A program made the translations under genes and the position numbers. 64,000 bases of DNA, from assembly GCA_963830105.1 (NCBI GenBank), contig CAWHLH010000005.1, positions 154,226-218,225 on the forward strand. Direction: 5' to 3'. Under the pieces are notes generated by a model. It saw only the letters and a program-made list of their open reading frames with translations. It was not told the origin of the DNA and did no database searches. Below, piece after piece: positions 18,038 to 32,500 of the stretch (the stretch's first letter is position 1; each line of letters opens with the position of its first letter). The stretch is from an uncultured Gammaproteobacteria bacterium (GTDB taxonomy: Bacteria; Pseudomonadota; Gammaproteobacteria; DATFLG01).

Positions 18038-19156
18038 TCAGGCCGGGTCGGCCGTTGCGCTCGCGTCGGGTTCACGCACGCCGGAGGCCCACCAGATGCG
18101 GCAGGCGCCCTCGTCGGAGACCATGCACGGCCCGATGGGTTTGCGCGGCGTGCAGGCGCGCCCGTAGAGCTGGCACTGGTTGGGGTAGATCTTACCGAGC
18201 ACGACGCGCGCACAGTCGCAGCCGGGTGGCATCTGGCCGGCGCGTTTGCGGTCGGGAGTGGTGTGGGTGGGCAGCTGCAGGCGGGCGTTGTGGGCCGCCA
18301 GCCCGGGTTTGAGCTCAAAGCCGGAGCGGGCAATGGTGCCGACTCCGCGCCAGTTGGCATCCACCACGTCCATGACTTCATCGAGCATGCGCCGGGCACC
18401 GGGGTTGCCGTCGGGTCGGACCAGCTCGGGATAGCAGTTGTCCAGGAAGCGGCGCCCTTCCAGATGCTGGCGCAAGGTGGAATACATGGCCGCCAGCAGG
18501 GACTCCGGGCTGAACCCGGCCACCGCCGCGGGAATGCGGTGCTCGTCCACCACGAACTGCCATTCCTGCGGCCCCATGACCGTGGCCACATGGCCAGGGG
18601 CGATCAGGCAGTCGAAGCCCGGCGCTTCGGATTCCAGCAGCATGGCCACCGCCGGCCAGGTCAGGCGGCCCGAAAGCAGCAGTAGCAGGTTGGCGGGCAT
18701 GCCCTGGGCGGCCATGGCGGCCACCGGTGCCGTCGTGGTCTCGAAGCCGGCGGCAAAGAACACCACCGTGCGCTGGGGGTGGCTTTCTGCGATCCGCACC
18801 GCCTCCAGCGGCGAGGCGATGGGGTGCACATCGGCGCCCGCCGCCTTGGCCTGTTCCAGGGAACGTGCCTGGGCGCGGGGCACGTTCACCGGCACCCGCA
18901 GCATGTCGCCGAACGCCACCAGGAGCGCGTCCTCGTGAAGGGCCAGCTGGATGGCGGCGTAGACATCCTCTTCCGGGCACACGCAGACCGGACAGCCCGG
19001 GCCGGGGATGAGTTCGACGTTGGCGGGCAGCGCACCGCGCAGACCGGCCATGCTGATGGAACGCTCGTGACCGCCGCACACGTTCATGATGCGCACCCTG
19101 CCCTCCAGGGGAAGGGCGTGTATGCGGGCCAGCCACTCCTTCGCCGTCGCGGTCAT
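18038..19156 (-). CDS. hypD: Hydrogenase maturation protein HypD
   Basis: The CGGH, GPGCPVCV and FETT motifs are present. Confidence 0.9.
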   Translation of the reverse strand: MTATAKEWLARIHALPLEGRVRIMNVCGGHERSISMAGLRGALPANVELIPGPGCPVCVCPEEDVYAAIQLALHEDALLVAFGDMLRVPVNVPRAQARSLEQAKAAGADVHPIASPLEAVRIAESHPQRTVVFFAAGFETTTAPVAAMAAQGMPANLLLLLSGRLTWPAVAMLLESEAPGFDCLIAPGHVATVMGPQEWQFVVDEHRIPAAVAGFSPESLLAAMYSTLRQHLEGRRFLDNCYPELVRPDGNPGARRMLDEVMDVVDANWRGVGTIARSGFELKPGLAAHNARLQLPTHTTPDRKRAGQMPPGCDCARVVLGKIYPNQCQLYGRACTPRKPIGPCMVSDEGACRIWWASGVREPDASATADPA

Positions 19157-19213
19157 GGGCGCTTTCCCTGCAGGACATGGCTCGGGGGTGAGGGGCGGCG
19201 CCCGGGTCGGCGT

Positions 19214-20065
19214 TCAGCCATGGTCATGTCCGTGGTGGTGATCGGGGCCTTGATGGAGGTGGAAGCGGGCCCCATCGGTCTGTATCGCCGGACGCAGCGT
19301 CTCGCTGGCGGCGATTCGTTGGCGATGGAGGGACAGCTCATGGCGCAGCCATCCCATCCAGGCGTCCAGGCCGCGCCCCTTGCGGGCCGAGAGCTCCAGC
19401 ATGGGTGCGTTGCTGGCCAGCTGGCGCAGGAAATGTTCGGCGCGGCGGGGTTCGAAGTCGTCGAGCACCTCCAGCAGATCGATCTTGGTCAGCAGCATGA
19501 GATCGGCCGCCCGGAACATGACGGGATACTTCGCCGGCTTGTCGTCGCCTTCGGTCACCGACAGCAGGGTGACATTGCGATGGTGGCCCAGATCGAAGCT
19601 CGCCGGACAGACCAGGTTGCCCACGTTCTCGATGAACACCAGATCCAGCTCGTCCAGGTCCAGTTGATGCAGGGCGGTGTGCACCATATGGGCATCCAGG
19701 TGGCAGGCGCTGCCGGTGGCGATCTGGACCGCGGGCACGCCTTTGGCACGGATGCGTTCGGCGTCGTTTTCGGTTTCCAGATCGCCCTCGATGACCCCGA
19801 TCCGCAAACGTCCCGCCAGGGCATCCAGGGTGGCTTCCAGCAGGGCGGTCTTGCCGGAGCCGGGGGAGGACATCAGGTTGATGGCCAACACGCCATGACG
19901 GTCGAAGTGCGCACGGTTGTGGGTTGCCTGATGGTCGTTTTCCGACAGCAGTCCCTGCAATACCTCCACGGCCGCCCGGCCGTCGCCGGTGGTGGCAAGC
20001 TTGCCGTCCGCTCGTACCAGGTGTTCGTTGCCGGGCGTCACGTTGCAGCCGCAGGTGTCGCACAT
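19214..20065 (-). CDS. hypB: Hydrogenase nickel-incorporation GTPase HypB with a C-terminal His-rich tail
   Basis: The real start is MCDTCGCN (the CxxCGC motif). It has a GSGKT P-loop. There is an unusual C-terminal extension ...HLHQGPDHHHGHDHG. Confidence 0.85.
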   Translation of the reverse strand: MCDTCGCNVTPGNEHLVRADGKLATTGDGRAAVEVLQGLLSENDHQATHNRAHFDRHGVLAINLMSSPGSGKTALLEATLDALAGRLRIGVIEGDLETENDAERIRAKGVPAVQIATGSACHLDAHMVHTALHQLDLDELDLVFIENVGNLVCPASFDLGHHRNVTLLSVTEGDDKPAKYPVMFRAADLMLLTKIDLLEVLDDFEPRRAEHFLRQLASNAPMLELSARKGRGLDAWMGWLRHELSLHRQRIAASETLRPAIQTDGARFHLHQGPDHHHGHDHG

Positions 20066-20118
20066 GGTTGTTGTCCCCCGTGTCGGTCCGCCGGGCGGCA
20101 TGCGCCCGGCGGCAGTAG

Positions 20119-20481
20119 TCAGTTGATGGTCGGCTCGGACTGCAGCAGTTCGACGCTGGCGAGCACCAGTTCGTCTCCGCTGATCAGGCGGGTGTGAAAG
20201 TCGCCGCACGCGGCGCACACCAGCCGGTTGGGCGCGGCGTCGGTTTCAGCCGCACAGCTGTCGCAGCGTACCCGCACCGGCAGTTGCTCGATGACCAGTT
20301 CCGCGTCGTTGGCGACGGTGCCGGCGCACGCCAGCGGAAAAGCCTGTTGCAGCAGACGGGGTTCGATGCCGGAGAGCGGACCGACCCGCACGATGACCCG
20401 CTCGACCGACTGGGCCTGGTGCTCGGCGGCGATTGCCGTTACCTGTCGGAGCATGCTCTGACAGACCGACAGCTCATGCAT
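20119..20481 (-). CDS. hypA: Hydrogenase nickel insertion protein HypA
   Basis: It has an MHE start and a CxxC...CxxC zinc site. Confidence 0.85.
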   Translation of the reverse strand: MHELSVCQSMLRQVTAIAAEHQAQSVERVIVRVGPLSGIEPRLLQQAFPLACAGTVANDAELVIEQLPVRVRCDSCAAETDAAPNRLVCAACGDFHTRLISGDELVLASVELLQSEPTIN

Positions 20482-20716
20482 TGCCGGCTTCGCCTACGGT
20501 TGCCAGCATTTGGTCGTAGAGCTCCCAGGCCGAACGCGCTTCCTGAGCGGTGAGCTTCTGAATGGCGTAGCCCACGTGAACCATCACGAAATCGCCCTGC
20601 GCGACGGTCTGGTCCTGGAGCAGGAACAGACTGACGTCGCGTTGCACACCCTTGGCTTCGCAATGGGCTATGAATCCATCGACTGCGTTCACCTGCATGG
20701 GTATGGCGAGACACAT
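20474..20716 (-). CDS. hypC: Hydrogenase assembly chaperone HypC
   Basis: The real start is the MCLAIP motif. Confidence 0.8.
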   Translation of the reverse strand: MCLAIPMQVNAVDGFIAHCEAKGVQRDVSLFLLQDQTVAQGDFVMVHVGYAIQKLTAQEARSAWELYDQMLATVGEAGNA

Positions 20717-21234
20717 TCGCGGGGGATCTCCTGTCAATGGGTAGGCGCAATACGCCCAAGTTCAGTATAGGGCCATTTCAGCGCCTGACCACCGGTTTGT
20801 CCATACCGGGTCATCCAGAATCGGGGGGGAAATTGACATGGATCAGTGTCGGTGCGGGGTGAGCGTGTATGGTGATTTCACAAATGAACCACTATTGGCA
20901 TCGCCGTGAAGAGCAACAAAAAAGCACAACACGCGTGCGGCAGTTCCAGCCCCATCTTCTGCGTGCGTCGGTACTCCCCGCTGCCGCGCGCTTCAGCCGT
21001 TGTGTCCTGCACAGAGCGCCGCCCGACGGCGCCCCATGGGGTCGGGCGTGGGTCAGCACCCTTGCGCCAGCACCGTGGGGAACCAACGATCGTGCGGTGC
21101 GGTCGGGCGCGCGTGAGTACATCAGCAGATAAGCATGTATGGATGAACTCGCCGGGTTTGAGGTTCGGCCATTGAACGGTATCGATACAGTGACAGACGA
21201 GGCGACATCCCAAGAGCCCGCGACCAGCGATCGG

Positions 21235-21693
21235 ATGGTGGTGCTGGGTTTGGGCAATACCCTGCTGAGCGATGAAGGCGTCGGGGTGCATATCATCGAT
21301 TATCTTCGCCGTCAGGCGCCACTGCATGGCGTCGACTACATTGATGGCGGGACCCTGAGCTTTACGCTCGCCGGACCCATCGAGTCCACGGACACGCTGA
21401 TCGTCGTCGACGCCAGCGAGCTGCAGGCGGCGCCTGGCACGGTACGCTGCTTCCAAGGCGAGGAGATGGACGGATTTCTGGGCAGCAATCGCAAACGCAG
21501 TGTCCACGAGGTCAGTCTGCTCGACCTGCTGGCCATCGCGCACCTGGCGGGCCACCTGCCCGCGCGCCGGGCATTGGTTGGAATCCAGCCGGCCAGTACG
21601 GACTGGGGCGACGCGCCCACCGAGGCGGTCGCCGAGGCGATACCGCGTGCCGCGGAACTGGTGCGGGAGCTGATCGAGGAGTGGCGGCAATGA
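21235..21693 (+). CDS. [NiFe]-hydrogenase maturation endopeptidase (HyaD/HupD family) for the hyn enzyme
   Basis: It starts MVVLGLGNTLLSDEGVGVH, typical of HupD/HyaD. An alternative upstream ATG at 21139 is possible. Confidence 0.7.
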   Translation: MVVLGLGNTLLSDEGVGVHIIDYLRRQAPLHGVDYIDGGTLSFTLAGPIESTDTLIVVDASELQAAPGTVRCFQGEEMDGFLGSNRKRSVHEVSLLDLLAIAHLAGHLPARRALVGIQPASTDWGDAPTEAVAEAIPRAAELVRELIEEWRQ

Positions 21694-22115
21694 ACGGTTT
21701 GGACGGTATCGGTGTGCAGGTGGTAACCCGCGACGCGGATGACGCCAGTGAGGCCAACGCCTGGGCGCTGCTGCACGAGCTGGACGGCATGCTGGATGCA
21801 TTGCTGCAGGACGGCGAGGAGAGCAGCATCGACCTGCGCAGCATTCCCATGACGACGGCCGATCGGGAGGTACTGGCAAGAGTGCTGGGCGAAGGGGAGC
21901 TGAACGCCAGCATCGATGCCCTCGGTCCCAGTCGGGTGCGGGAGACCGGCATCCATGGCGTCTGGTGGGTGACGCACCACAACACCGATGACGCCGTCAT
22001 CGCTGAATTCCTGGAAGTCTCTTTCTGCCCCGACATTCTGCGCAGCCACATCGACGACGTGCGGGACACGCTCGAAAGTCTGCGCACGCAACTGGTACAA
22101 CACAGGGAATCCTGA
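21681..22115 (+). CDS. Putative hydrogenase expression/formation accessory protein (HupH/HyaF-like domain?)
   Basis: 144 aa, overlapping the protease stop. It carries a GVWWV block reminiscent of the HupH C-domain. The family call is tentative. Confidence 0.4.
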   Translation: MAAMNGLDGIGVQVVTRDADDASEANAWALLHELDGMLDALLQDGEESSIDLRSIPMTTADREVLARVLGEGELNASIDALGPSRVRETGIHGVWWVTHHNTDDAVIAEFLEVSFCPDILRSHIDDVRDTLESLRTQLVQHRES

Positions 22116-22140
22116 TAACGGCACTTTGGGAGGTGATCGC

Positions 22141-23205
22141 ATGGCAAAATCAGAAACGGTAGGCGAGCATCTGCGTCGCCATGGCGTCAGTCGACGGGCG
22201 TTCCTCAAGTTCTGTGCCGCGACGGCTTCCATGATGGCTCTGCCGCCCGGAGCGGCCACCGCCATTGCCGAGACCCTTGCCAAGCAGCGCCGGCCGAACG
22301 TCATATGGTTGTCGTTCCAGGAGTGCACCGGCTGCACCGAATCGCTGACCCGCTCCTATGCGCCCACCATCGAGAAGCTGATCTTCGACGTCATCTCGCT
22401 GGACTACCACGAGACCTTGATGGCGGCTTCCGGCGAGGCTGCGGAGGCTGCGCGGCAAGCCATCATCAAGGACAATCCCGGCAAGTACGTGGTCATGATC
22501 GACGGTTCAGTACCGGTGGAGGGAGGCTTTGGCACCATAGGCGGCAAGAGCATGCTCGATATCTGCAAGCATACGGTGGAGAACGCCGCGGCGGTCGTGT
22601 GTGTCGGGACCTGCTCGTCCTTCGGCGGCATCCCGTACGCCAACCCCAATCCCACCGGCGCCAAGAGCATTTCCATGCTGATGGACGAAGGTCTGGTCCC
22701 GCGCAAGCCGCTGATCAACGTCTCGGGCTGCCCACCCATTCCGGTGGTCATCACCGGCGTGGTGGTCCACTACCTGTCCTATGGCGTGCCGGAGTTGGAC
22801 CATGTGGGACGCCCCAAGGCGTTCTTCGGGCAGACCATCCACGACCGCTGCTACCGGCGCCCGTTCTACGACCAGGGCAAGTTCGCCAAGACTTTCGACG
22901 ACGAAGGGGCCCGCAACGGGTGGTGCCTGTTCGAACTGGGCTGCAAGGGGCCCACCACCTACAATTCGTGCGCCACCACCAAATGGAACGACGGTACCAG
23001 CTTCCCGATCGAGTCCGGGCACGGCTGCCTGGGCTGCTCGGAACCGAACTTCTGGGACAAGGGCAGCTTCTACGCGCCGCTGGCCAGCAGTGAGTCGGGG
23101 GGAGTGGTCGGGCTGGGCGCGGCTGCGGTCGCCGGGGTGGCGGTGGGCGTCGGCGCTGCCATCGTGTCCCGCAACCATCAGAAGAAGCTCACGGAGGGCA
23201 AATAA
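22141..23205 (+). CDS. hynS: [NiFe]-hydrogenase small subunit with a Tat signal (Isp-type, group 1e)
   Basis: It has the RRAFLKF twin-arginine motif and the IWLSFQECTGCTES and GTCSSFGG cluster motifs. Confidence 0.9.
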   Translation: MAKSETVGEHLRRHGVSRRAFLKFCAATASMMALPPGAATAIAETLAKQRRPNVIWLSFQECTGCTESLTRSYAPTIEKLIFDVISLDYHETLMAASGEAAEAARQAIIKDNPGKYVVMIDGSVPVEGGFGTIGGKSMLDICKHTVENAAAVVCVGTCSSFGGIPYANPNPTGAKSISMLMDEGLVPRKPLINVSGCPPIPVVITGVVVHYLSYGVPELDHVGRPKAFFGQTIHDRCYRRPFYDQGKFAKTFDDEGARNGWCLFELGCKGPTTYNSCATTKWNDGTSFPIESGHGCLGCSEPNFWDKGSFYAPLASSESGGVVGLGAAAVAGVAVGVGAAIVSRNHQKKLTEGK

Positions 23206-23207
23206 CC

Positions 23208-23867
23208 ATGACTGTGCTCGACTTCGCGCGTGGCCCGGGACTGCAGTGGTCCCTGGTGATCTTCGTCGTTGGGGTGCTGTGGCGCCTCACGGGAATCTTC
23301 TTTCTGAAGCACAAGCGCGACCTGAACGAACCGCGCCACGGCGGGCTGGCGCCCTGGCTGGGCGGTCTGAAGGTGGTGTTCACCCGGATGTGGCCGCGCA
23401 GGGAATTCCGCGCCCGCACGGCGTACAGCGAGACGCTGGGCTACGTGTTCCACTTCGGGTTGGCCATCGTGGTGTTCGGCGGGGCATTCCACATCACGTT
23501 CATCAAGAGCCTGTTCGGGGTGAGCTGGGGAAACCTGCCAAACTCCGTGATCTACTTCACCGCGGTGATCACGCTGGCCACCATGGTGGCGTTGCTGATA
23601 CGGCGCATGACCCATCCGGTGTTGAGGGTGCTGTCGAACTTCGATGACTATTTGAGCTGGGCCGTGGCGGCCGCGCCGCTGGTGACCGGGATGATGGCGA
23701 CCGCCCACCTGGGTGGGCCTTACGAGACCCTGCTTGGGGTGCATATTCTGAGCTTCGAGGTGCTGCTGGTCTGGTTCCCGTTCGGCAAGCTGATGCATGC
23801 GTTCCTGTTCGCGCCGTCGCGGGCGGCGACCGGTTATGTGTTCACGCGCAAGGGGGCTTCCACATGA
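23208..23867 (+). CDS. isp1: Isp1: membrane-bound b-type cytochrome (NarI/DsrM-like) of the Hyn hydrogenase
   Basis: 219 aa with about 5 TM helices and conserved His residues. It sits between hynS and isp2, as in Thiocapsa/Allochromatium hyn. Confidence 0.7.
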   Translation: MTVLDFARGPGLQWSLVIFVVGVLWRLTGIFFLKHKRDLNEPRHGGLAPWLGGLKVVFTRMWPRREFRARTAYSETLGYVFHFGLAIVVFGGAFHITFIKSLFGVSWGNLPNSVIYFTAVITLATMVALLIRRMTHPVLRVLSNFDDYLSWAVAAAPLVTGMMATAHLGGPYETLLGVHILSFEVLLVWFPFGKLMHAFLFAPSRAATGYVFTRKGAST

Positions 23868-25219
23868 GCGCCGACAATCAGTCCACCATCGATCTCAAAC
23901 TGCCGGGGTTCAGCGTCGACAAGCCCGAGGTGCGCTACGATCAGCAGGGCGACATGAGCGATGAGCAGCGTGTGTCCCAGGCGATGCGCAATTTCGCCAA
24001 GGACTTCGGTTACGTCGCCTCCGTTCACATGGATTCCTGCGTGCACTGCGGCATGTGTGCCGAGGCCTGTCATTTCTATGTGACGACCGGGGATCCCAAA
24101 TACACCCCGATCTGGAAGATCGAACCGTTCAAGCAGGTGTACAAACGCGAGGCCGGTCCGTTCGCCTTCTTCTACCGGTTGTTGAACCTCAAACCGGCGC
24201 TGACGGTGGATCGGCTGCGGCAGTGGCAGGAACTGATCTACGACTCCTGCACGGTGTGCGGTCGCTGCAGCATGATATGCCCCATGGGCATCGATATCGC
24301 GGGGCTGGTAAGTCAGGCTCGGCACGCGATGTTCAAGGCCGGTCTGGTTCCCCACGAACTGCACGCGGTGGCCGAGCGCGCCGAAACGGAAGGCAGCCCC
24401 CTGGGGGCGACGCCGAAGGTGTTCGCCGAGCGGGTCGAGTGGATGGGTGACGAGCACGATATCGAGATTCCCATGGACAAGGAGCAGGCCGACGTGCTGC
24501 TCACCATGTCGTCTATCGAAATCATGAAGTATCCGGAGGCGATTGCGGCCAGTGCCAAGGTGATGGCCCATCTGGGGATGTCGTACACGTTCAGCACCGA
24601 GGGCTACGAGGCGACCAACTTCGGGCTGCTGTCGGGGAATACGGACTGGCAGCGGGACATGAGCCTGAAACTGATCAATGCCGCCATTAAATGCAAGGCC
24701 AGGTATCTGATACTGCCCGAGTGCGGACATGCCTATACGGCTCTGCGCTGGGCGGGCGCCACCATGTACGGCAAGCCGCTGCCTTTCAAGGTCCGGCACA
24801 TCTCGGAGTTCCTCGCCGAGCAGGTCAGCAACGGCAAGCTCAAGCTCAGGGGCGACCTCAACAAATCGGTGACCTTTCACGACCCCTGCCAGGTGGTACG
24901 GCGCGGAGGGGCGATAGAAGGTCCGCGGACGGTGTTGAAGGCGCTTGGCGTCGATCTGCACGAGATGAAGGAAAACCGCGGCGCCAACTGGTGCTGCGGA
25001 GGCGGGGGCGGAGTGGTGACCATTCACCGCGCCGATGCAATCCGCTACAAGACATTCGAGATCAAGATGCGCCAAGTGGAGGATACCGGCGCGGAAATGC
25101 TGGTCACCAGTTGTTCGAACTGTCGCCAGACATTCGACGACGGACAAGCCCATTTCAACTGGGACAAGACCGCGCAGAGCATGCTCGAACTGGTCGCGGA
25201 AAACCTGGTGGAGGCATAG
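23864..25219 (+). CDS. isp2: Isp2: HdrD/DsrK-like Fe-S protein with CCG domains
   Basis: It has two 4Fe-4S motifs (CVHCGMCAEACHF and CTVCGRCSMICPMG) and the CCG signature NWCCGGGGG. Confidence 0.8.
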   Translation: MSADNQSTIDLKLPGFSVDKPEVRYDQQGDMSDEQRVSQAMRNFAKDFGYVASVHMDSCVHCGMCAEACHFYVTTGDPKYTPIWKIEPFKQVYKREAGPFAFFYRLLNLKPALTVDRLRQWQELIYDSCTVCGRCSMICPMGIDIAGLVSQARHAMFKAGLVPHELHAVAERAETEGSPLGATPKVFAERVEWMGDEHDIEIPMDKEQADVLLTMSSIEIMKYPEAIAASAKVMAHLGMSYTFSTEGYEATNFGLLSGNTDWQRDMSLKLINAAIKCKARYLILPECGHAYTALRWAGATMYGKPLPFKVRHISEFLAEQVSNGKLKLRGDLNKSVTFHDPCQVVRRGGAIEGPRTVLKALGVDLHEMKENRGANWCCGGGGGVVTIHRADAIRYKTFEIKMRQVEDTGAEMLVTSCSNCRQTFDDGQAHFNWDKTAQSMLELVAENLVEA

Positions 25220-25291
25220 CGATCCGATCGGCACGGTTCCCGCTGCCTGAATCGTCATCCGAAACACGTGAACAGCCTTAAGGAATAGCCG

Positions 25292-27049
25292 ATGAGCGCA
25301 AACAGAGTCGTGGTGGATCCCATTACCCGAATCGAGGGTCATCTTCGGATCGAAGCGGAGACCGACAGCTCGGGCAATATCACCCAGGCATCGAGTGCCG
25401 GGACCATGGTGCGGGGGATAGAAATCATCCTGCGCGGACGCGACCCCCGGGATGCATGGGCATTTGCCCAGCGCATCTGCGGCGTGTGCACCCTGGTCCA
25501 CGGCATGGCGTCGATACGCGCCGTGGAGAACGCTCTCGACTATCCCATCCCGCAGGATGCGCAGCTGATCCGCAATCTGATGATCGCCGCGCAATACGTA
25601 CACGACCACGTGATGCATTTCTATCACCTGCACGCCCTGGATTGGGTGAACGTACCCAATGCGCTGAAGGCGGATCCGAAGGCGACGTCCGAGCTGGCCC
25701 AGTCCATCAGCACCTACAGCCGCTCTTCGCCCGGCTATTTCTCCGACGTGAAGACCAAGCTGAAGACGTTCGTGGAGTCGGGGCAGCTGGGTATTTTCAC
25801 CAATGGGTATTGGGACAATCCGGCCTACAAGCTGCCCCCGGAGGCCAACCTGATGGCGGTTGCCCACTATCTTGACGCGCTCGAGTGGCAGCGCAGAGTG
25901 GTCAAGCTGCATACCATCTTTGGCGGCAAGAATCCCCATCCGAACTTCGTCGTCGGCGGGACCCCGGCAGCGATCAGCGTCCAGTCCCAGAGCGGCGGCG
26001 GGAGTTTCGGGGGCGGACGGGCGACCGCTATCGACACGGTGGGCCTGGAGGAGGTGAAGAATGTCATCGACGAGATGGTGAGCTTCGTCGATCAGGTCTA
26101 TGTGCCGGACACACTGGCGATCGCGAGCTTCTACAAGGATTGGTTCACCAAGGGCGAAGGAATCGGGAATTTCATGACCTACGGTGAGTTTCCGTCCAAG
26201 AGCATGGACGATCCGTCGAGCTTCCTGATACCCCCCGGGGTCATCCTGGACCGGGATCTGTCGAAGATCCACGAACTGGATCTCAATGCTCAGGACGAGA
26301 TCCAGGAATATGTGTCCCATTCCTGGTACGACTATTCGGTGGGCAAGGACAAGGGCCTGCATCCCTACGACGGCGAAACGAAGCTCGACTACACCGGCCC
26401 CAAACCACCCTACGATTATCTGGATGTGGAAAAGGACTATTCCTGGATGAAGTCGCCCCGCTGGAAGGGCAAGGTCGTGGAGGTCGGACCGCTCGCCCGG
26501 GTGCTGATGCTCTATGCGACCGGCCACAAGCAGACCCGCGAGTTGGCTCAGATGGCGCTCACCAAGCTCGACCTGCCGGTGCAGGCGCTGTATTCGACAC
26601 TGGGGCGCACGGCGGCGCGTACCCTCGAGACCAAGGTGATCGTCGATCAGATGAAAGGCTGGTACGATCAGCTGATGGCCAACATCAAGGCCGGCGACCT
26701 GCAGACGTTCAACGACAAGAAATGGGACCCCTCCACATGGCCCAAGACCGCAAAAGGGGTGGGTTTCATGGAAGCCCCGCGTGGCGCCCTGGCGCACTGG
26801 GTGGTCATCAAGGACGGCAAGATAGACAACTACCAGGCGGTGGTGCCCAGCACGTGGAATGCGGGGCCGCGCGATGCCCAGGGGCAGGATGGACCGTACG
26901 AGGCCAGCCTCAAGGGTACCAACCTGTACAATCCCAAGGAACCGGTGGAAATCCTGCGTACCATCCACAGTTTTGATCCGTGCATTGCCTGTGCCGTTCA
27001 CGTGACCGATCCGGACGGCGAGGAGTTGGTGCAGGTGAAGGTGCGGTGA
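25292..27049 (+). CDS. hynL: [NiFe]-hydrogenase large subunit (Isp-type, group 1e)
   Basis: It has the RICGVCTLVH and C-terminal DPCIACAVH Ni-Fe ligand motifs. Confidence 0.9.
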   Translation: MSANRVVVDPITRIEGHLRIEAETDSSGNITQASSAGTMVRGIEIILRGRDPRDAWAFAQRICGVCTLVHGMASIRAVENALDYPIPQDAQLIRNLMIAAQYVHDHVMHFYHLHALDWVNVPNALKADPKATSELAQSISTYSRSSPGYFSDVKTKLKTFVESGQLGIFTNGYWDNPAYKLPPEANLMAVAHYLDALEWQRRVVKLHTIFGGKNPHPNFVVGGTPAAISVQSQSGGGSFGGGRATAIDTVGLEEVKNVIDEMVSFVDQVYVPDTLAIASFYKDWFTKGEGIGNFMTYGEFPSKSMDDPSSFLIPPGVILDRDLSKIHELDLNAQDEIQEYVSHSWYDYSVGKDKGLHPYDGETKLDYTGPKPPYDYLDVEKDYSWMKSPRWKGKVVEVGPLARVLMLYATGHKQTRELAQMALTKLDLPVQALYSTLGRTAARTLETKVIVDQMKGWYDQLMANIKAGDLQTFNDKKWDPSTWPKTAKGVGFMEAPRGALAHWVVIKDGKIDNYQAVVPSTWNAGPRDAQGQDGPYEASLKGTNLYNPKEPVEILRTIHSFDPCIACAVHVTDPDGEELVQVKVR

Positions 27050-27145
27050 CCGGAACCGGGGGCCCCGTCGGGGGTGCCCGGGGCCTGCGGGGCCGGGCTG
27101 ACGGCGGTGGCCCCGGCTCCCTGACGGCTTTTGGTGGCTGTTTTC

Positions 27146-27169
27146 CACGCGCGCTCCGGCGCGCGTTTT
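27146..27169 (+). terminator. Putative rho-independent terminator downstream of hynL
   Basis: The stem cacgcgcgc / tccg loop / gcgcgcg is followed by TTTT. Confidence 0.45.
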
Positions 27170-27338
27170 CGTGCGCTGCCGCGCAATCGGCAGTGCACGC
27201 CCCGTGGTAGTGCAGTGGCTGACAATCTCCCACGCGTGCCTGCTATTCTACTGAAATCCCCGGCCGACCCTGGTCTGATTGCCGAGGCGATCCGGATCGC
27301 AAGTCGACGCGGGGACTGACAAAGAAGCGATGTAGCCA

Positions 27339-29783
27339 ATGACCCAGAAGTGCCGACTCAATATCGATCAACTGTTCCGGCCCTGTGATCCCCGGCAGTT
27401 CCACTTCGAGACCACCGCCGAGCTCGAGCCTTATGTCGGGATGATCGGCCAGGATCGCGCCCTGGAAGCCTTGCGCTTCGGCGTCGGCATCCGTCGGGAG
27501 GGCTACAATCTGTACGTCCTGGGTCCCCCGGGCGCCGGCAAACACACCGCGGTGCTGGATTTTCTCACCCCGCACGCGCATAGCGAACCGGTGGGCAGCG
27601 ACTGGTGCTATGTGAACAATTTCCAGGACGGGCAGCGTCCCAAGCTGCTGCGCCTGCCGGCCGGTCGCGGCGAGGCGCTGCGCCGAGGCCTCACGCAGTG
27701 GGCCGAGGACCTGGGAAGCGCTCTTCCTGCGGCCTTCGAGAGCGAGGAATACCAGACCCGTTTGCAGGAGTTGCAGGAGGACATGAAAGAGCGTCAGGCT
27801 CAGGCCCTGCAGGTAGTTCGGGAACGGGCCGAGCAGCTCAACGTCGTGCTCCTGCATACTCCCGGAGGGTTCGCGTTCGCACCCGCCCGCAAAGGCGAGG
27901 TGTTGGGTCCCGACGAGTTCGAAAAGCTGCCCGAGGAGGAACGCAAGGCCGTTGAGCGGGACGTGCAGGCGCTGCAGGAACAGCTCAAGAAAGTGCTGCA
28001 GCAGTTTCCCCAGTGGCAGCGCGAAACCCGACGCGGCATCAAAGCGCTGAATCGGGATGTGACGCTATTTGCAGTCGGACATCTGATCGATGAATTGCGC
28101 CATGAGTTCGACGATCTGCCCGCCGTGCGCGAGTACCTGGACGCCGTGCAGCAGGACATCGTGGACAATGCCGACAATCTGCGCCGGGCAGCCGACAGCC
28201 TGGCGGAAAACCCCAATATCGCCGAGTTCGACGGTCAGTTCGCGCGCCGTTATCAGGTCAACCTGCTGGTCGGGCAAGGCGATGTCGGGGGTGCGCCGGT
28301 GGTGTATCAGGACCATCCCACCTATGACAATCTGGTGGGGCGGGTGGAACACATGGCCCAGATGGGCACCCTGCTCACCGATTTTACGCTCATAAAGGCG
28401 GGTGCCCTGCACCGGGCGAACGGCGGATACCTGATTCTGGATGCTGACAAGGTACTCACGCAGCCCTACGCGTGGGAGGGCCTGAAGCGGGCGATAAAGT
28501 CCGGTGAAGTGTGCATAGAATCGCTCGGGCAGGCCCTCGGCCTGATCAGCACCATCTCGCTGGAACCGGAACCCGTGCCGCTGAACCTGAAGGTGGTTCT
28601 GATCGGCGATCGGATGCTCTATTACCTGCTCTCCGAACTCGATCCCGAGTTCAAGCAGCTGTTCAAGGTCGAGGCGGATTTCAACGACCACATGGTTCGC
28701 GACGAGCCCGGGCACGCACTGTACGCACAGCTCATCGCAACTGTCGCGCAACGGGAAGGTCTGGCCCCTCTGGGGCGTGGCGCCGTTGCGCGGGTGGTGG
28801 AGCACAGCGCCCGGCTGGCCGAGGATGCGCAGCACCTGTCCACGGATTTGCGCAGTATGGCCAATCTGCTGTGTGAGGCCGACTACTGGGCGCGGGAAAG
28901 GGGCGCCGAGGTGGTGGAGGGGCCCGACGTCGAGCAGGCGATAGAAGCCCAGATCCGACGTCGGGACCGCATCCGCGAGCACCTTCAGGACGAGGTCCTG
29001 CGCGGTACGGTGCTCATCGACAGCGAGGGCGAAGCGGTCGCCCAGGTCAATGCCCTGTCGGTCATCGAGCTGGGCGGGTTCATGTTCGGTGTCCCGAGCC
29101 GGGTAACCGCCACCGCGCGCCTGGGCGAAGGTGAAGTGGTGGACATCGAGCGGGAGGTGGAGCTGGGCGGCGCTTTGCATTCGAAGGGCGTGCTGATTCT
29201 GTCGCATTTCCTGGCCGCCCGCTATTCGGCGGACCGTCCCTTGTCGTTATCCGCCAGCGTGGTTTTCGAACAGAACTACGGTCAGATCGAGGGAGACAGC
29301 GCGTCGCTGGCCGAACTCTGCGCGTTGCTCTCGGCGTTGGCGCGACTGCCCATCCGCCAGTCTGTTGCGGTGACGGGGTCGGTGAACCAGCTCGGTCAGG
29401 TGCAGGCCATCGGCGGGGTTAACGCAAAGATCGAGGGTTTCTTCGATATCTGTCGGGCGCGTGGGCTGACGGGTGACCAGGGGGTGGTGATTCCCGCTTC
29501 GAACGTGATTCATCTGATGCTGCGCCAGGACGTCCTGGAGGCGGTTCAGGCGCGCCGGTTCCATGTCTATGGGGTGGACACTGTGGATCTGGCACTGGAG
29601 TTGCTTACCCGAGTGGAAGCCGGTGAGCGGCGCGAGGACGGGAGTTTTCCGGAGGGGACGGTGAATCGGCGCATCGAGGCGCGTCTCAATGAACTCGCCG
29701 GGCTGCGCCAGGTGCACAGCGACAGATCCCAGGAAAGTCATGACTGCGAAGGGGACGCCGAGGAAGGTGTGCATGGCGACTGA
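27339..29783 (+). CDS. Lon-like ATP-dependent protease with an N-terminal AAA+ domain (AsrA-like, S16 family)
   Basis: 814 aa. It has a Walker A motif (GPPGAGKHT) and a C-terminal Lon proteolytic domain (EGDSASLAELCALLSAL) with a catalytic Ser and a downstream Lys (GGVNAKIEGF). Confidence 0.75.
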   Translation: MTQKCRLNIDQLFRPCDPRQFHFETTAELEPYVGMIGQDRALEALRFGVGIRREGYNLYVLGPPGAGKHTAVLDFLTPHAHSEPVGSDWCYVNNFQDGQRPKLLRLPAGRGEALRRGLTQWAEDLGSALPAAFESEEYQTRLQELQEDMKERQAQALQVVRERAEQLNVVLLHTPGGFAFAPARKGEVLGPDEFEKLPEEERKAVERDVQALQEQLKKVLQQFPQWQRETRRGIKALNRDVTLFAVGHLIDELRHEFDDLPAVREYLDAVQQDIVDNADNLRRAADSLAENPNIAEFDGQFARRYQVNLLVGQGDVGGAPVVYQDHPTYDNLVGRVEHMAQMGTLLTDFTLIKAGALHRANGGYLILDADKVLTQPYAWEGLKRAIKSGEVCIESLGQALGLISTISLEPEPVPLNLKVVLIGDRMLYYLLSELDPEFKQLFKVEADFNDHMVRDEPGHALYAQLIATVAQREGLAPLGRGAVARVVEHSARLAEDAQHLSTDLRSMANLLCEADYWARERGAEVVEGPDVEQAIEAQIRRRDRIREHLQDEVLRGTVLIDSEGEAVAQVNALSVIELGGFMFGVPSRVTATARLGEGEVVDIEREVELGGALHSKGVLILSHFLAARYSADRPLSLSASVVFEQNYGQIEGDSASLAELCALLSALARLPIRQSVAVTGSVNQLGQVQAIGGVNAKIEGFFDICRARGLTGDQGVVIPASNVIHLMLRQDVLEAVQARRFHVYGVDTVDLALELLTRVEAGERREDGSFPEGTVNRRIEARLNELAGLRQVHSDRSQESHDCEGDAEEGVHGD

Positions 29784-30546
29784 GGCGACCGGCGGACGGC
29801 ATTTTGAACGGCTGGTGCTTGCCCTGGACAGCTCCGGCGAAGACGGGCAGCGGCTGCATGCGGCCGCCCGGCTTGCGGCGCGCCTCGACCTGGAACTGAG
29901 TGGCCTGTTCGTGGAGGACATCGCGCTGCATCGGCTTGCCGGCCTGCCGATTGCGAGCGAAGTGAGCCTGCTGGCGGCGCAGACTCGGGCGTTCGCGGCT
30001 GCGCAGCTGGAACGGGGGTTACGCCGTCAGGCCGCCCGGCTGGAGGCGGCTCTCAGGGCGGCAGCGCAGGCGGTCGGCGTTCCGTGCTCCTTCCAGGCGC
30101 TGTGTGGACAGCCCATACGCGGTGTGCTGACAGCGGCGACCGCAGGTGACCTGGTGTTGGTCGCTGCCAGTGCCCGGTACCGGTCAGGCGGTCCCCCACG
30201 GGTGCCCGGCCCGGTGATGGTGGTGTTCGATGGTGCGAGTGTCGGCACGCAGGTGCTGACGCTCGCCGGACGTCTGGCGCGGCTTGACGGTCGCCGCCTG
30301 CAGGTGCTGCTCGTCGGCACGGAGTCGCAGACGGTGCGGCTGCGCGAGCAGGCCCAGGGCGAGCTTGCGTCAACGATGGGGACGCAGGTCAACTATGCCG
30401 GCATTGGCAGCGGGGCGTGGCCGGACGTGCTGGACGCGGCGTCACGGCTGGGGGCGGAATTGCTGGTGACCGACTTGCAACGAATGGCGGCGGCCGACCC
30501 ACGAACGCTGCAGCACTCGGCCTGTACCATCGTTGTGGTGCGGTGA
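29773..30546 (+). CDS. Universal stress protein (UspA)-like tandem-domain protein, translationally coupled to the Lon-like protease
   Basis: The ATG overlaps the protease stop (ATGGCGACTGA). It shows an alpha/beta USP-like pattern (LVLALDSSGED..., VMVVFDGASVG..., ...CTIVVVR). The family call is tentative. Confidence 0.4.
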   Translation: MATEATGGRHFERLVLALDSSGEDGQRLHAAARLAARLDLELSGLFVEDIALHRLAGLPIASEVSLLAAQTRAFAAAQLERGLRRQAARLEAALRAAAQAVGVPCSFQALCGQPIRGVLTAATAGDLVLVAASARYRSGGPPRVPGPVMVVFDGASVGTQVLTLAGRLARLDGRRLQVLLVGTESQTVRLREQAQGELASTMGTQVNYAGIGSGAWPDVLDAASRLGAELLVTDLQRMAAADPRTLQHSACTIVVVR

Positions 30547-30934
30547 CGGACAGATCGCAGCATCGGCGCCGCTTGCGCCAGAACGACAGCCCCAGCAGGA
30601 GGGTGCCCAGCGCCAGCAGGGCGGCGATGCCCGGTCCGTGTACTTCGGTGGGGGCCTTGGGAACCCGCGTGCCGGCAACAGCCAGGGGCGGTTTCATGGC
30701 TGGCAGCGCTGCGGACACTCGGGGTTCGGGCGCGGTTGGCGCAGGCGGGCGCTCCACGGTCTGAGGGTCCTTTTCGCCGGGTTCGGCCGCCAACGGCATG
30801 CTGTACGCCGGGCCCCCGGCGGTGCCTGCCGGCGTGGCGGTGCCGGGGCCGCGGCTGCCAGCCAGCTGCGCGGTCGCAACCACCAGGAGGAGCGGGAGGA
30901 GCCACTCCCCACGGATATCCGGCATACGGTCCAT
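30389..30934 (-). CDS. Hypothetical secreted Pro/Ala-rich protein with a C-terminal TM segment and an Arg cluster (PEP-CTERM-like?)
   Basis: It has a Sec signal peptide (LLPLLLVVATAQLAGS), a Pro-rich region, and ...GIAALLALGTLLLGLSFWRKRRR. Its 3' 150 nt overlap the USP-like gene on the other strand, so the gene model is uncertain. Confidence 0.3.
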   Translation of the reverse strand: MDRMPDIRGEWLLPLLLVVATAQLAGSRGPGTATPAGTAGGPAYSMPLAAEPGEKDPQTVERPPAPTAPEPRVSAALPAMKPPLAVAGTRVPKAPTEVHGPGIAALLALGTLLLGLSFWRKRRRCCDLSVTAPQRWYRPSAAAFVGRPPPFVASRSPAIPPPAVTPRPARPATPRCQCRHS

Positions 30935-31061
30935 ACAGTCCCCCCGCCGCTCTCTACAGTCAGAGGATATGCCAGCTTTGGGTCACCGATGGGGGATGTT
31001 TCTTCCGTTGCGGTCGTTCCGATCCGTTTCTGTTCAAGGGTGGCGCCCGGCGTGCGTGGGT

Positions 31062-31778
31062 CTACTTGTGCTTGCTCTGACCGGCCGTAATCTCGCTCAT
31101 AAGCTCCAGCTGAACCTGCTGGATCTCAACCAGCCGCTGCCACTGGGTGGACAACATGTGGTCGATCTTCTCGTGGAGCTGCCGGATTTCCAGTTCCGCT
31201 TTCATGTTGACCTGGTAGTCGTGTTGTGCGCGCAGGCGATCGCGGTCTTCCTGGCGGTTCTGGCTCATCATGATGATGGGCGCCTGAATCGCCGCCAGGC
31301 AGGACAGAACCAGGTTGAGCAGGATGAAAGGGTAGGGATCGAACGGGTGGCGCATCAAGATCACGGTGTTGACCATGACCCACAGCCCCAGCACCGCGGC
31401 AAAGGAGATCAGAAATGTCCATGAGCCCCCGAACTCCGCCAGCCGATCGGACAGGCGTTCACCGAGCGTCAGCTGCTGCTCAAATTCTGCGTCCACATTC
31501 CGGGATAGAATCTCGTGCTGGCGCAGGCTTTCGAGCACCTCGTTCTCGAGCGAGCTCAACTCGCCTGTTTCGGCCGCCACCAGGGACTGGATGTAGCGAT
31601 CCCGAAAGTGGTTCAGGTCGTTGCGGCAGATGACGCCGTCCGGGGACCAGTCGGGATGTTGCTTGCGGATCTCTTCGACGACCGCGCTGCGCAGCAGTGA
31701 GCCGGGGATCAACTCGCTGCGTGGCAGGGTGCGCCCGCAGATCGGGCAGACGGCGCTGGCGGATTGATGCTTGTTCAT
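31062..31778 (-). CDS. DUF1003 family membrane protein
   Basis: It has an N-terminal CPICGR zinc-ribbon-like motif, the PFDPYPFILLNLVLSCLAAIQAPIIMMSQNRQ DUF1003 core, and a C-terminal coiled coil. Confidence 0.65.
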   Translation of the reverse strand: MNKHQSASAVCPICGRTLPRSELIPGSLLRSAVVEEIRKQHPDWSPDGVICRNDLNHFRDRYIQSLVAAETGELSSLENEVLESLRQHEILSRNVDAEFEQQLTLGERLSDRLAEFGGSWTFLISFAAVLGLWVMVNTVILMRHPFDPYPFILLNLVLSCLAAIQAPIIMMSQNRQEDRDRLRAQHDYQVNMKAELEIRQLHEKIDHMLSTQWQRLVEIQQVQLELMSEITAGQSKHK

Positions 31779-31999
31779 CGCACACCCCCGTGCGCATCGG
31801 GCATCCGTGACATCTCGGCACTTCCTTGCGATAGTAAATCCGTTTGGCCATCGATTCGCAAGCACGCGGGAGCATGGCGGCCTGTTTCGGCCGATGAATT
31901 TATGGCCGACCGTGCTGTCTCAAGCGAGGCGGTTGTGGGAGGGGAATACACGGCTTGCCTGTCCGAGCACATCCCGGAAACCAAACCAAGGAGAACATT

Positions 32000-32500
32000 G
32001 TGGTGACCAACAGATACCATTTCGTTTTGGCCCTGCTGTGTGTTGCCTGGCTATTGGGCGGGGTTGCCCATGCCGCGGACTTGAAGGACACCGATGCCCT
32101 GCGGGGGCTCACCAGCGCCAAAGGCGTCTTCATGATCGATATCAACGACCCGCGCCGGGTGGCCCATGTGCTGGATGTGGTGGAAAAGACCGACACCGGC
32201 ATGCGCAAGCAGGGCGTGACGCCCCATATCATTGTGGTGGTGATCGGGCCGGCAGTGGCGTTTCTGACCAAGGATCGGCGCGGCATACCGTACATGGATG
32301 AGCGGGCCGTATCCCAGGTGCAAGGGGAAATCCATAAGCTCAAGACCATGGGTGTGCGTACCGAAGCCTGCGGGGTTGCCCTCAAAGGCATGGACGTCGA
32401 TCCCAAGGACGTGATTGACGACGTGCATCCGGTGGGCAACGGATTCATCTCCGCCATCGGCTATCAGGCGCAGGGCTATGAGTTGGTGCCGGTCTATTAG
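32000..32500 (+). CDS. DsrE/DsrF-like family protein with an N-terminal signal peptide (periplasmic)
   Basis: A GTG start follows an aaggag RBS. It has a signal peptide (LALLCVAWLLGGVAHA) and a DsrE-like fold pattern (GVFMIDIND...HIIVVVIGPAV...CGVAL). Confidence 0.55.
   Translation: MVTNRYHFVLALLCVAWLLGGVAHAADLKDTDALRGLTSAKGVFMIDINDPRRVAHVLDVVEKTDTGMRKQGVTPHIIVVVIGPAVAFLTKDRRGIPYMDERAVSQVQGEIHKLKTMGVRTEACGVALKGMDVDPKDVIDDVHPVGNGFISAIGYQAQGYELVPVY

Follow-up and report, generated by a model that had tools for sequence, protein, structure and literature searches.

Within the window, the 64,000-nt stretch of DNA analyzed in this study, the region examined here comprises two overlapping plus-strand genes, encoding a LonC-subfamily Lon-like protease (27339..29783, 814 aa) and a LonC-associated partner protein of tandem-USP fold (29773..30546, 257 aa), as well as a convergent minus-strand ORF (30389..30934, 181 aa) that extends into the partner gene.

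A LonC-type protease

As originally predicted, ORF 27339..29783 (+) encodes a Lon-family Ser-Lys protease of 814 aa, combining an S16 protease domain with an AAA-like domain that is degenerate and contains a helical insertion. Its Pfam matches were LonC_helical (50.3 bits), AAA_32 (192.7 bits), LonB_AAA-LID (83.7 bits) and Lon_C (31.4 bits). The top PDB match was MtaLonC (4fwd, E=4.8e-95, aa 28-794), 7990 homologues were found, and an identical protein is present in a Gammaproteobacteria MAG. The catalytic residues Ser654 (GDSAS, with GDSA at aa 652; 29298..29300, +) and Lys697 (NAKIEGFF at aa 695; 29427..29429, +) are invariant in the alignment and correspond to S582 and K625 of MtaLonC, respectively, while the LonC-specific insertion CRARGLTG (29451..29474, +) fits the consensus CX3GLX(G/E) (PMC3391209).

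The N-terminal Walker A ATPase that had been proposed was recovered in part. A Walker A-like P-loop, GPPGAGKHT (aa 62-70; 27522..27548, +), is present with G62, G65, G67 and K68 invariant (alignment A2), but it is non-canonical in carrying a His after the Lys, and the Walker B-like GYLILDA (aa 363-369; 28425..28445, +), identical in MtaLonC, lacks the catalytic Glu. Motif scans of the protein detected neither the canonical Walker A G-x4-GK[ST] nor an hhhhDE Walker B. The N domain is absent as well, and a KD19 maximum of only 1.45 indicates that there is no TM segment. The NCBIfam model 'endopeptidase La' (cutoff 891) gave 23 bits, and LonA models matched over ~75-90 residues of the protease domain only. 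[quoted passage not shown] Because AsrA is of the LonA type, the earlier designation "AsrA-like AAA+" names the wrong subfamily for this protein, which aligns with the ATPase-dead MtaLonC.

A tandem-USP partner gene overlapping LonC

The coupling junction (29760..29783, +) contains an SD-like GAGGAAGG at 29760-29767 within the LonC 3' end, and its sequence ATGGCGACTGA was confirmed, with the partner ATG at 29773 and the LonC TGA at 29781-29783 overlapping by 11 nt. The predicted overlap of the protease stop with the ATG of a USP-like gene thus stands, while the predicted length of 258 aa has to be changed to 257 aa, on which gene calls in three independent assemblies agree. Among ~120 LonC-partner pairs, the distance between stop and start was -4 nt in 59, -8 in 13 and -11 in 9, an overlapping arrangement being the rule typical of these pairs. 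Since a terminator-like hairpin with T-run (27148..27173, +; one site found versus 0.3 expected in shuffles) separates the LonC start from the end of hynL at 27049, LonC and its partner are suggested to form their own transcription unit.

The match of the partner to Pfam Usp, anticipated like that of the protease to Lon_C, was borderline (24.3 bits, cutoff 24). The AF2 model (pLDDT 77.4) consists of two alpha/beta domains in a tandem fold, and its top Foldseek match was TTHA0350 (3ab8, E=7e-11), with Rv2623 and UspE also among the best matches. The partner-family profile likewise matched TTHA0350 (E=1.8e-11; 88.5 bits with a 123-sequence profile). The USP ATP motif G-x2-G-x9-G-[ST] is missing from the 257-aa protein, a short form from which the segment bearing the motif has been deleted. 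Near-invariant positions of the conserved beta3 motif are substituted (W105C, R108Q and R111C), codon bias is weak, and the partner sequence changes rapidly (61% identity, compared with 83% for LonC). With its near-invariant substitutions and weak codon bias, the copy in the window could be decaying. The most conserved stretch of the family is the signature motif FVEDIALHRLAGLPIASEV at aa 46-64 (29908..29964, +; consensus FVEDIxLLRLAxLPFAREV), and aa 50-72 of the model have a pLDDT below 50, which may merely reflect the shallow alignment of 17 sequences.

Pairing of LonC and partner across phyla

A LonC ORF was located directly upstream of the partner in 71/71 partner loci from metagenomes, and the partner directly downstream of LonC in 44 of 72 LonC loci, the latter distributed over the Chloroflexota, Acidobacteriota, Pseudomonadota, Chlorobiaceae, Deinococcota, Planctomycetota, Bacteroidota/Rhodothermota and Latescibacterota. 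The remaining 28 LonC loci are without a partner, and LonC can therefore function by itself, as seen in vitro. Genes flanking the pair vary from lineage to lineage, every one being different. Plasmids of cultured Leisingera strains bear the same pair, annotated as 'ATP-binding protein' and 'hypothetical protein'. No LonC-partner fusions were found among ~150 loci. LonC and the tandem-USP partner are thereby shown to constitute a conserved, widespread two-gene module, with near-obligate pairing. The module part of the protease/nucleotide-binding stress module envisaged in the original prediction is consequently conserved across phyla, while nucleotide binding does not fit this copy with its deleted motif segment. 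Our literature search found no paper describing a LonC-USP gene pair, and the LonC papers PMC3391209 and PMC13069640 do not mention an operon partner; the operon has apparently not been described so far.

The convergent minus-strand ORF

The 181-aa orphan ORF (30389..30934, -) starts with a signal-peptide-like N-terminus MDRMPDIRGEWLLPLLLVVATAQL (30863..30934, -; A-T-A motif before QL, a heuristic call), followed by a Pro/Ala-rich middle, a TM helix with basic cluster (PGIAALLALGTLLLGLSFW-RKRRR, aa 101-124; 30563..30634, -) and a 57-aa tail; the peptide DPQTVERPPAPTAPEPR lies within its translation. The net charge of the n-region is -1 and the KD19 maximum is 1.82 at aa 100. The TM and RKRRR segment had been placed at the C-terminus, but 57 of the 181 residues follow it. 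It has a generic X-CTERM-like shape without P-E-P motif, and its scores were sub-threshold for Heimdall-CTERM (17.6, cutoff 24), MYXO-CTERM (15.9, cutoff 20) and LPXTG (14.8, cutoff 15.9). The full ORF did not match TIGR02595, and the excised fragment, at 15.4 bits, fell short of the cutoff (16), with the P-E-P positions unmatched. A PEP-CTERM protein was rejected, as every PEP-CTERM criterion tested failed.

The ORF and its convergent overlap of about 150 nt were both confirmed. The overlap measures 158 nt (30389..30546), in which the last 52 codons of the partner are antisense to the last 52 of the ORF, and codon statistics in this interval fit the plus-strand frame. Because no stop codon follows RKRRR in the minus frame, the ORF continues for 158 nt along the antisense strand of the partner gene, and the last 52 residues are plainly read-through antisense to the USP gene. 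Of the two gene models, one of which had been suspected to be wrong, the plus-strand model is correct, being conserved, called in all assemblies and the dominant frame in the overlap; the lack of homologues, which had been named as the mark of a GC artefact, was found for the minus-strand ORF.

The 515-bp gap between the convergent partner and DUF1003 genes (30547..31061) holds a lineage-specific insertion of ~450 bp. In the relatives L001/L002, L003 and L094, which lack the insertion, this gap spans only 55-86 bp, while the gap of the independent assembly L007 is identical. The insertion-bearing gap has no second copy elsewhere in the window and no Rfam match.

We give slightly less than an even chance to the explanation that, instead of being a gene, the minus-strand ORF is an open frame in high-GC DNA, non-coding or formerly coding, that was gained by insertion, with 30547-31061 really being an untranslated spacer or 3' UTR. 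Consistent with this, no homologues were detected in 5.8 billion clusters or 1.84 billion representative proteins, the ORF is not called as a gene in any assembly, including L007, no promoter or terminator was found for it, its tail is antisense read-through, and its codon score of +5 is far below those of typical genes in the window (mean 37, minimum 21). The open frame itself is uninformative, because the same high-GC stretch is traversed by five further ORFs exceeding 100 aa and, by our estimate under an iid model, ~5-11% of equally long frames would be free of stops. On the other hand, the codon-phase score exceeded those of all 2000 dinucleotide shuffles and is specific to this frame and strand, which is the best of six with GC at codon positions 1/2/3 of.76/.62/.81. 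The coherent layout of signal peptide, TM helix and positive-inside cluster also argues for a gene, the combination of an N-terminal hydrophobic stretch with a TM/basic cluster being found in only this one of the 235 window ORFs of at least 100 aa, as does the SD-like GGGGGG run 5 nt upstream of the ATG. Moreover, a long antisense overlap incurs a penalty in Prodigal-type gene callers, a possible reason for the missing call. The ORF resembles a gene more than a plain GC artefact would and, on its sequence, most likely represents a young orphan gene or a fragment of one, encoding a putative small bitopic membrane protein; it is separate from the LonC-partner module.

Proposed role of the module

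We consider it likely that the locus combines a self-contained operon of LonC and a dedicated, translationally coupled tandem-USP partner with a separate orphan minus-strand ORF that is not PEP-CTERM. LonC would be a ring-forming Ser-Lys peptidase whose AAA-like module has lost the ATPase residues, and the partner may serve as its stoichiometric regulatory or adaptor subunit. The family-specific FVEDI-x-LLRLA-x-LPF segment is a candidate element for docking on LonC, from where the partner could gate ring assembly or substrate access. Partners that retain the USP ATP site, as TTHA0350 does, could make an ATP-blind protease nucleotide-responsive, while the copy in the window, because its ATP site is lost, probably acts without nucleotide.

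It is unlikely, though conceivable, that the partner is instead a dedicated LonC substrate or inhibitor (antitoxin-like or pro-protein-like), with the conserved flexible FVED...LPF segment as a degron or pseudosubstrate that fills the proteolytic groove until it is displaced by stress. The gene linkage would be equally expected in this case, the most conserved partner segment is modelled with low confidence and is perhaps flexible, as degrons and pseudosubstrates are, and the closed hexamer of MtaLonC is driven by unfolded polypeptides and inhibitors (PMC13069640). However, PADLOC found no toxin or defence-like signature, and the low pLDDT may come from nothing other than alignment depth. The assembly originally predicted, in which an AsrA-like AAA+ Lon that depends on ATP would work with a nucleotide-binding USP and a PEP-CTERM surface protein sorted by exosortase would be encoded convergently, is highly improbable, since the P-loop-like GPPGAGK, the Lon_C and Usp matches and the near-cutoff PEP_CTERM fragment are outweighed by the LonC-specific features, the 'endopeptidase La' score, the missing ATP motif of the partner and the absent P-E-P and non-terminal TM helix of the minus-strand ORF.

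Comparison with known systems

PEP-CTERM, MYXO-CTERM, Heimdall-CTERM and LPXTG signals share a hydrophobic helix followed by an Arg/Lys cluster with aa 101-124 of the minus-strand ORF, which differs from PEP-CTERM (TIGR02595) in having HGPG where PEP is expected and a helix that is not at the protein end. AsrA (PA0779) of Pseudomonas aeruginosa likewise represents an additional Lon-family Ser-Lys protease with a link to stress in a gammaproteobacterial host. As a LonA-type enzyme, it shares ~40% identity with canonical Lon, its Walker A/B motifs are intact, and its N-terminal domain recognises substrates (bioRxiv 10.64898/2026.09.03.749167); none of these features is present in the window LonC.

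The nearest known system of the protease is LonC, represented by MtaLonC of Meiothermus taiwanensis (PDB 4FWD/4FW9/8K8V) and TTC1975 of Thermus thermophilus HB27. Both of these break down unfolded polypeptides in an ATP-independent manner and, on heating, function as holdase chaperones. MtaLonC and the window LonC have the same order of P-loop-like N-terminus, helical-hairpin insertion, AAA_32 core, LID and S16 protease domain, and share GYLILDA, GPPxxGKH, the CX3GLX(G/E) insertion and the Ser-Lys dyad. In contrast, MtaLonC has GPPSLGKHE in place of GPPGAGKHT, and the window protein has ~80 additional aa, located mostly in the helical insertion and C-terminal tail. The known LonC comes from a thermophile, while the one in the window belongs to a mesophilic high-GC gammaproteobacterial MAG.

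For the partner, the best match in both sequence and fold is TTHA0350, a tandem-type USP of Thermus thermophilus HB8 (PDB 3AB7/3AB8), with which it has in common an architecture of two USP domains, the beta1 'LDxS' D and FVxD at the beta2 end. In TTHA0350, which binds two ATPs, domain 1 still has the G-x2-G-x9-G-S-T ATP motif (PMC3673472). The window partner differs in the deletion of the ATP-motif segment and in the three beta3 substitutions listed above. The offset between HB27 and HB8 gene numbering suggests that TTHA0350 presumably adjoins the LonC gene of HB8.

Identification of a LonC-type protease

The 814-aa Lon-family ORF at 27339-29783 (+) is present as the original prediction described it, and on its motifs the encoded protease is assigned to the LonC subfamily (MEROPS S16, Lon-like). 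It matched the Pfam families LonC_helical (PF20437, 50.3 bits; cutoff 24 bits), AAA_32 (192.7 bits), LonB_AAA-LID (83.7 bits) and Lon_C (31.4 bits; cutoff 21.1 bits). The last of these bears out the anticipated S16 Ser-Lys domain, as does the dyad Ser654/Lys697, residues that align with S582 and K625 of the LonC of Meiothermus taiwanensis (MtaLonC) and are invariant in 12 homologues. MtaLonC was also the best solved relative (PDB 4FWD and others, E=4.8e-95 over aa 28-794) within a very large family (7990 scored homologues), and a protein identical to that of the window occurs in a Gammaproteobacteria MAG under the label 'ATP-binding protein'.

LonC proteases have been defined by the lack of an N-terminal domain and of membrane segments, a Walker A-like GPPSLGKHE, a Walker B-like GYLILDA without the catalytic Glu and a protease-domain insertion CX3GLX(G/E) (PMC3391209). 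In the window protein the LonC_helical match marks the helical insertion in the AAA-like domain that is specific to LonC, no LonA N-domain family was matched in Pfam, and the hydrophobicity maximum (KD19, 19-mer) of 1.45 indicates that there is no TM segment, in contrast to LonB. Its P-loop, GPPGAGKHT (aa 62-70), is of the GPPxxGKH type, its Walker B-like GYLILDA (aa 363-369) is the same as that of MtaLonC and lacks the catalytic Glu, and its insertion CRARGLTG (aa 705-712) fits the LonC-specific pattern, while neither canonical G-x4-GK[ST] nor hhhhDE was found. Both MtaLonC and TTC1975 are devoid of ATPase activity (PMC3391209), and cryo-EM found only phosphate in the P-loop of MtaLonC, a proteolytic hexamer that turns into a chaperone heptamer upon heating (PMC13069640). 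Going by motif loss and homology to these two proteins, the window LonC would have no ATPase activity and would degrade unfolded substrates independently of ATP.

The enzyme had been proposed to be an AsrA-like AAA+ ATPase. AsrA (PA0779) is described as a second protease of the LonA type, in which an N-terminal domain is present and the Walker A/B motifs are intact (bioRxiv 10.64898/2026.09.03.749167), whereas the window protein has neither and reached only 23.4 bits with the NCBIfam model for endopeptidase La (cutoff 891). An ATP-dependent Lon of the LonA or AsrA type was therefore rejected: together with the LonC motifs, these results mean that the family (Lon, Ser-Lys) had been recognized correctly, while subfamily and energetics had not.

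Gene junction and neighborhood

The predicted overlap of the LonC stop with the downstream ATG was found in the sequence ATGGCGACTGA, where the ATG at 29773 precedes the TGA at 29781-29783 to give an 11-nt overlap. The gene starting here, referred to as the partner (29773-30546, +), encodes 257 aa rather than 258, with the start as called in three independent assemblies carrying an identical LonC, and a Shine-Dalgarno-like site (GAGGAAGG, 29760-29767) lies ahead of its ATG. A terminator-like hairpin (27148-27173) is located between hynL and the LonC-partner pair. No sigma-32 consensus was matched upstream of LonC, no sigma-70-type promoters were found close to either gene, and a search for RNA genes in 27000-32200 produced a single Rfam match, to an archaeal snoRNA and attributable to chance (19.5 bits vs a cutoff of 50).

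Upstream of the pair, the window contains a complete Hyn/Isp-type [NiFe] hydrogenase cluster (18038-27049), with coordinates mapped from the gene calls of L005, an assembly of the same organism. It comprises, on the minus strand, hypD (18038-19156), a cobW/hypB-like gene (19214-20065), hypA (20119-20481) and hypC (20474-20716) and, on the plus strand, a hycI-like protease gene (21139-21693), hupH (21690-22115), the hydrogenase small subunit (22141-23205), a 219-aa protein (23208-23867) with a faint nitrate-reductase-gamma-like match in the relatives L001/L002, an HdrD-like Fe-S/CCG protein (23864-25219) and the hydrogenase large subunit (25292-27049). The placement of two electron-transfer genes between those for the two hydrogenase subunits resembles the hynS-isp1-isp2-hynL arrangement of purple sulfur bacteria. 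On the other side of the pair follow a DUF1003 membrane protein whose N-terminus holds a CxxC...zinc-ribbon-like segment (31062-31865, -) and a DsrE-family protein (31955-32500, +), in an order that is conserved after the LonC pair in the relatives L001, L003 and L094.

The partner is a tandem USP-fold protein

The USP-like fold proposed for the partner was recovered, in the form of two tandem alpha/beta domains. Although the Pfam Usp match (PF00582) was borderline (24.3 bits; cutoff 24), the AF2 model (pLDDT 77.4, pTM 0.71) consists of two tandem beta-alpha-beta domains, and its top Foldseek matches were all tandem USPs at probability 1.0, namely TTHA0350 (3AB8, E=7e-11), Rv2623 and UspE. A profile of 17 partner sequences matched TTHA0350 with E=1.8e-11, the remaining USPs reaching at most 24 bits, and a profile built from the 123 partners found here gave 88.5 bits to the visible part of TTHA0350. 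We define the partners here as a family of LonC-associated tandem USPs that is TTHA0350-like.

Conservation within the family is strongest in the motif FVEDIxLLRLAxLPFxxEV after beta2 and in WSFRxxRG in beta3. The former is present in the window partner (aa 46-64, with I60 replacing F) and falls mostly inside a segment of the AF2 model with pLDDT below 50 (aa 50-72); aa 46-64 may constitute a candidate docking or pseudosubstrate element. The latter is altered to CSFQALCG: W105C, R108Q and R111C replace residues whose conservation in the 123-sequence alignment is 71-94%, while the partners of the closest relatives retain its W and R. The suggestion that this protein binds nucleotides is not supported for the window copy, since the segment carrying the USP ATP-binding motif is deleted and the motif occurs in neither domain: in comparison with longer family members, the helix and loop that bear it (around aa 131-147) are missing from the window partner and from its close relatives. 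In its strict form (G-x2-G-x9-G-[ST], UspFG/MJ0577 class) the motif was detected in domain 1 of 42 of the 123 family members. The altered WSFRxxRG and the lost ATP-motif segment may reflect relaxed constraint or a changed function. Codon bias of the gene is weak, and the partner evolves faster than LonC: compared with the same relative it is 61% identical and LonC 83%. At about 60% amino-acid identity, synonymous sites of the partner gene are saturated. The window partner, while intact and positionally conserved, may be under relaxed constraint.

Association of LonC and its partner across bacteria

Among close relatives, whose LonC is 80-83% identical, the order hydrogenase, LonC, partner, DUF1003, DsrE is retained. 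Distant partners of about 30% identity also follow LonC, with 4-nt overlaps, in neighborhoods that are otherwise unrelated. When 80 metagenome loci were collected with the partner profile, a LonC ORF ended beside the partner start in every one of the 71 that had at least 400 nt upstream. Conversely, the partner lay immediately downstream of LonC in 44 (61%) of the 72 loci with at least 700 nt downstream, drawn from 80 genome loci found by the LonC profile; these 44 were distributed over Chloroflexota, Acidobacteriota, Alpha-, Beta- and Gammaproteobacteria, Chlorobiaceae, Trueperaceae, Rhodopirellula, Salinivenus, Latescibacterota and Bradymonadales. The offset between stop and start in about 120 pairs was most often -4 nt (59 pairs), followed by -8 (13) and -11 (9), counts that are biased toward overlap by taking the start nearest to the LonC stop; even so, half of the pairs have their in-frame start at exactly -4, far more than chance would give. 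No fusions of the two genes (Rosetta-stone evidence) were found.

The pair is also carried by cultured strains amenable to genetics, on Leisingera plasmids, where it is labelled 'ATP-binding protein' and 'hypothetical protein' in RefSeq and the latter reaches 61.9 bits to the partner profile. On the Leisingera caerulea plasmid NZ_CP081082.1 (L175, 1-6124) it is situated just downstream of genes for a DnaJ C-terminal-domain (CbpA-like) protein, the chaperone modulator CbpM, DUF5765 and alcohol dehydrogenase, which gives the pair a proteostasis-flavoured neighborhood on roseobacter plasmids. A Cupriavidus sp. USMAHM13 plasmid (L173, 5487-6953) has an IS30 transposase about 500 bp past LonC, at the place where the partner would be expected. 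Nicotinate phosphoribosyltransferase is a recurring neighbor, encoded after the pair in locus L010 and ahead of LonC in L173. A role in a defence system was dismissed, as PADLOC returned only noise (mad8 15.6 bits, BrxL 12.7 bits).

We found no published link between LonC and USPs in the searchable literature, papers that mention both terms being unrelated; the word 'operon' is not used in the LonC accounts PMC3391209 and PMC13069640, and a search via neighboring locus tags yielded no mention of TTHA0350 adjoining the Thermus LonC gene. A dedicated, translationally coupled tandem-USP partner family of LonC that includes the solved TTHA0350 thus does not appear to be described in the searchable literature. 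Both genes of the pair in the window are ordinary members of known families, and it is their pairing, which lay outside the interpretation offered by the original prediction, that is the point of wider interest.

The minus-strand ORF and its insertion

The convergent ORF at 30389-30934 (-), of 181 aa, covers the last 158 nt of the partner gene, in agreement with the overlap of about 150 nt noted before. The distance from the partner stop to the convergent DUF1003 stop is 515 bp in the window compared with 55-86 bp in L001/L002, L003 and L094, which points to a lineage-specific insertion of about 450 bp. Its presence in identical form in the independent assembly L007 shows that this insertion is real. 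Two further assemblies of the same organism, L005 (NCBI MAG JBAUSR010000327.1) and L006 (Logan SRR28003197), both end inside it at window position 30826; strain variation at this site was discarded in favor of an assembly artefact from adapter contamination, since L006 (7057-7079) runs on into the Nextera transposase adapter CTGTCTCTTATACACATCT / CTGTCTCTTATACACATCTGACG, which accounts for both contig ends. A repeat, MITE or duplicated segment as the source of the insertion was rejected, as blastn against the window and all loci returned only chance matches of up to 33 nt; the repeat scan gave only short chance pairs, and no Rfam family was matched.

The ORF had further been likened to PEP-CTERM proteins with a C-terminal TM plus RKRRR anchor. 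This segment is located at aa 101-124 of 181, with 57 residues after it, and the full-length product gave no match to TIGR02595 at E<=0.1. An artificially excised fragment scored 15.4 bits against PEP_CTERM (cutoff 16), aligned only to model positions 4-24 with the P-E-P positions unaligned, and reads HGPG in place of PEP; matches of the cut fragment to other curated C-terminal sorting domains were likewise sub-threshold and non-specific, to many models of the TM-plus-basic type. On these results the predicted product, whose RKRRR ends at aa 124, is not a PEP-CTERM protein.

Several observations speak against a real gene. Several further long ORFs cross the same GC-rich stretch, and a 1104-aa open frame (23834-27148, -) antisense over the HdrD-like and hydrogenase large-subunit genes is a clear case of the spurious long ORFs that arise in this region of 61-65% GC. 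There is no gene call at the minus-strand ORF, and no homologues were detected either at E<=10 in a word-indexed search of 5.8 billion clusters or, for aa 1-129, at E<=0.001 in an exhaustive phmmer search of 1.84 billion representatives. On its strand the scan detected neither promoter nor terminator patterns, and the one terminator-like site that it picked up is a weak hairpin with a T-run on the plus strand (31012-31034, about 470 nt past the partner stop); should this site function, the transcript of LonC and its partner would cross the entire ORF in antisense. On the other side, its frame within the insertion (GC1/2/3 =.76/.62/.81) is the sole one of six that fits the coding model. Its codon score of +5.0 was higher than in any of 2000 dinucleotide shuffles (composition-matched null; mean -31, sd 5). 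It falls in the span seen for the bona fide partner gene (-1.4 to 12.8), far under the scores of the other window genes (mean 37). It is the only one of 235 window ORFs of at least 100 aa with an N-terminal hydrophobic stretch and a TM followed by a basic cluster, and a GGGGGG run precedes its ATG by 5 nt.

Within the 158-nt overlap, codon statistics favor the partner's frame on the plus strand; the minus frame has the look of antisense. After RKRRR the ORF continues for six codons (CCDLSV) before it meets the complement of the partner stop codon, which spans the codons for Val130-Thr131, and no stop is nearby in any frame. In our reading the ORF would encode a small bitopic membrane protein, either as a young orphan gene or as the 5' fragment of one that was acquired, and its tail would stem from accidental read-through. 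We lean slightly towards its being expressed as a protein. Of the earlier alternatives of a wrong gene model or genuine antisense overlap, the overlap stands as a sequence feature, while the minus-strand ORF itself is an unverifiable orphan without homologues. It serves as a caution, being gene-like and homologue-free, with a C-terminus that arises where the frame reads on into sequence antisense to a conserved gene.

A possible two-component LonC-USP system

LonC is well characterized biochemically: it is a protease and holdase that works independently of ATP, and structures of it have been solved. USPs are abundant. A USP family encountered only with LonC (71 of 71 loci), usually translationally coupled to it and including a solved ATP-bound structure (TTHA0350), offers a concrete, testable hypothesis for the physiological role and regulation of LonC and for the molecular functions of USPs. 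We tentatively propose, as a possibility we rate below even, that LonC proteases, no longer equipped with an ATPase and nucleotide recognition of their own, may generally work in two-component machines whose other part is a dedicated tandem-USP subunit of the TTHA0350 family, the product of the translationally coupled gene just downstream. The partner would dock on LonC via the FVED...LPF segment, the docked partner would set the protease/chaperone (hexamer/heptamer) balance of LonC, and ATP-binding members of the family would restore energy-state sensing in trans. If true, this would assign a function to an 'orphan' USP known from structural genomics and would supply LonC with a physiological regulator; neither is described in the searchable literature. 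For annotation, 'LonC-type protease' and 'LonC-associated tandem USP' are more informative than the RefSeq labels. In TTHA0350, which binds two ATPs, domain 1 still carries the USP ATP motif (PMC3673472), whereas the window partner has lost the segment that bears this motif.
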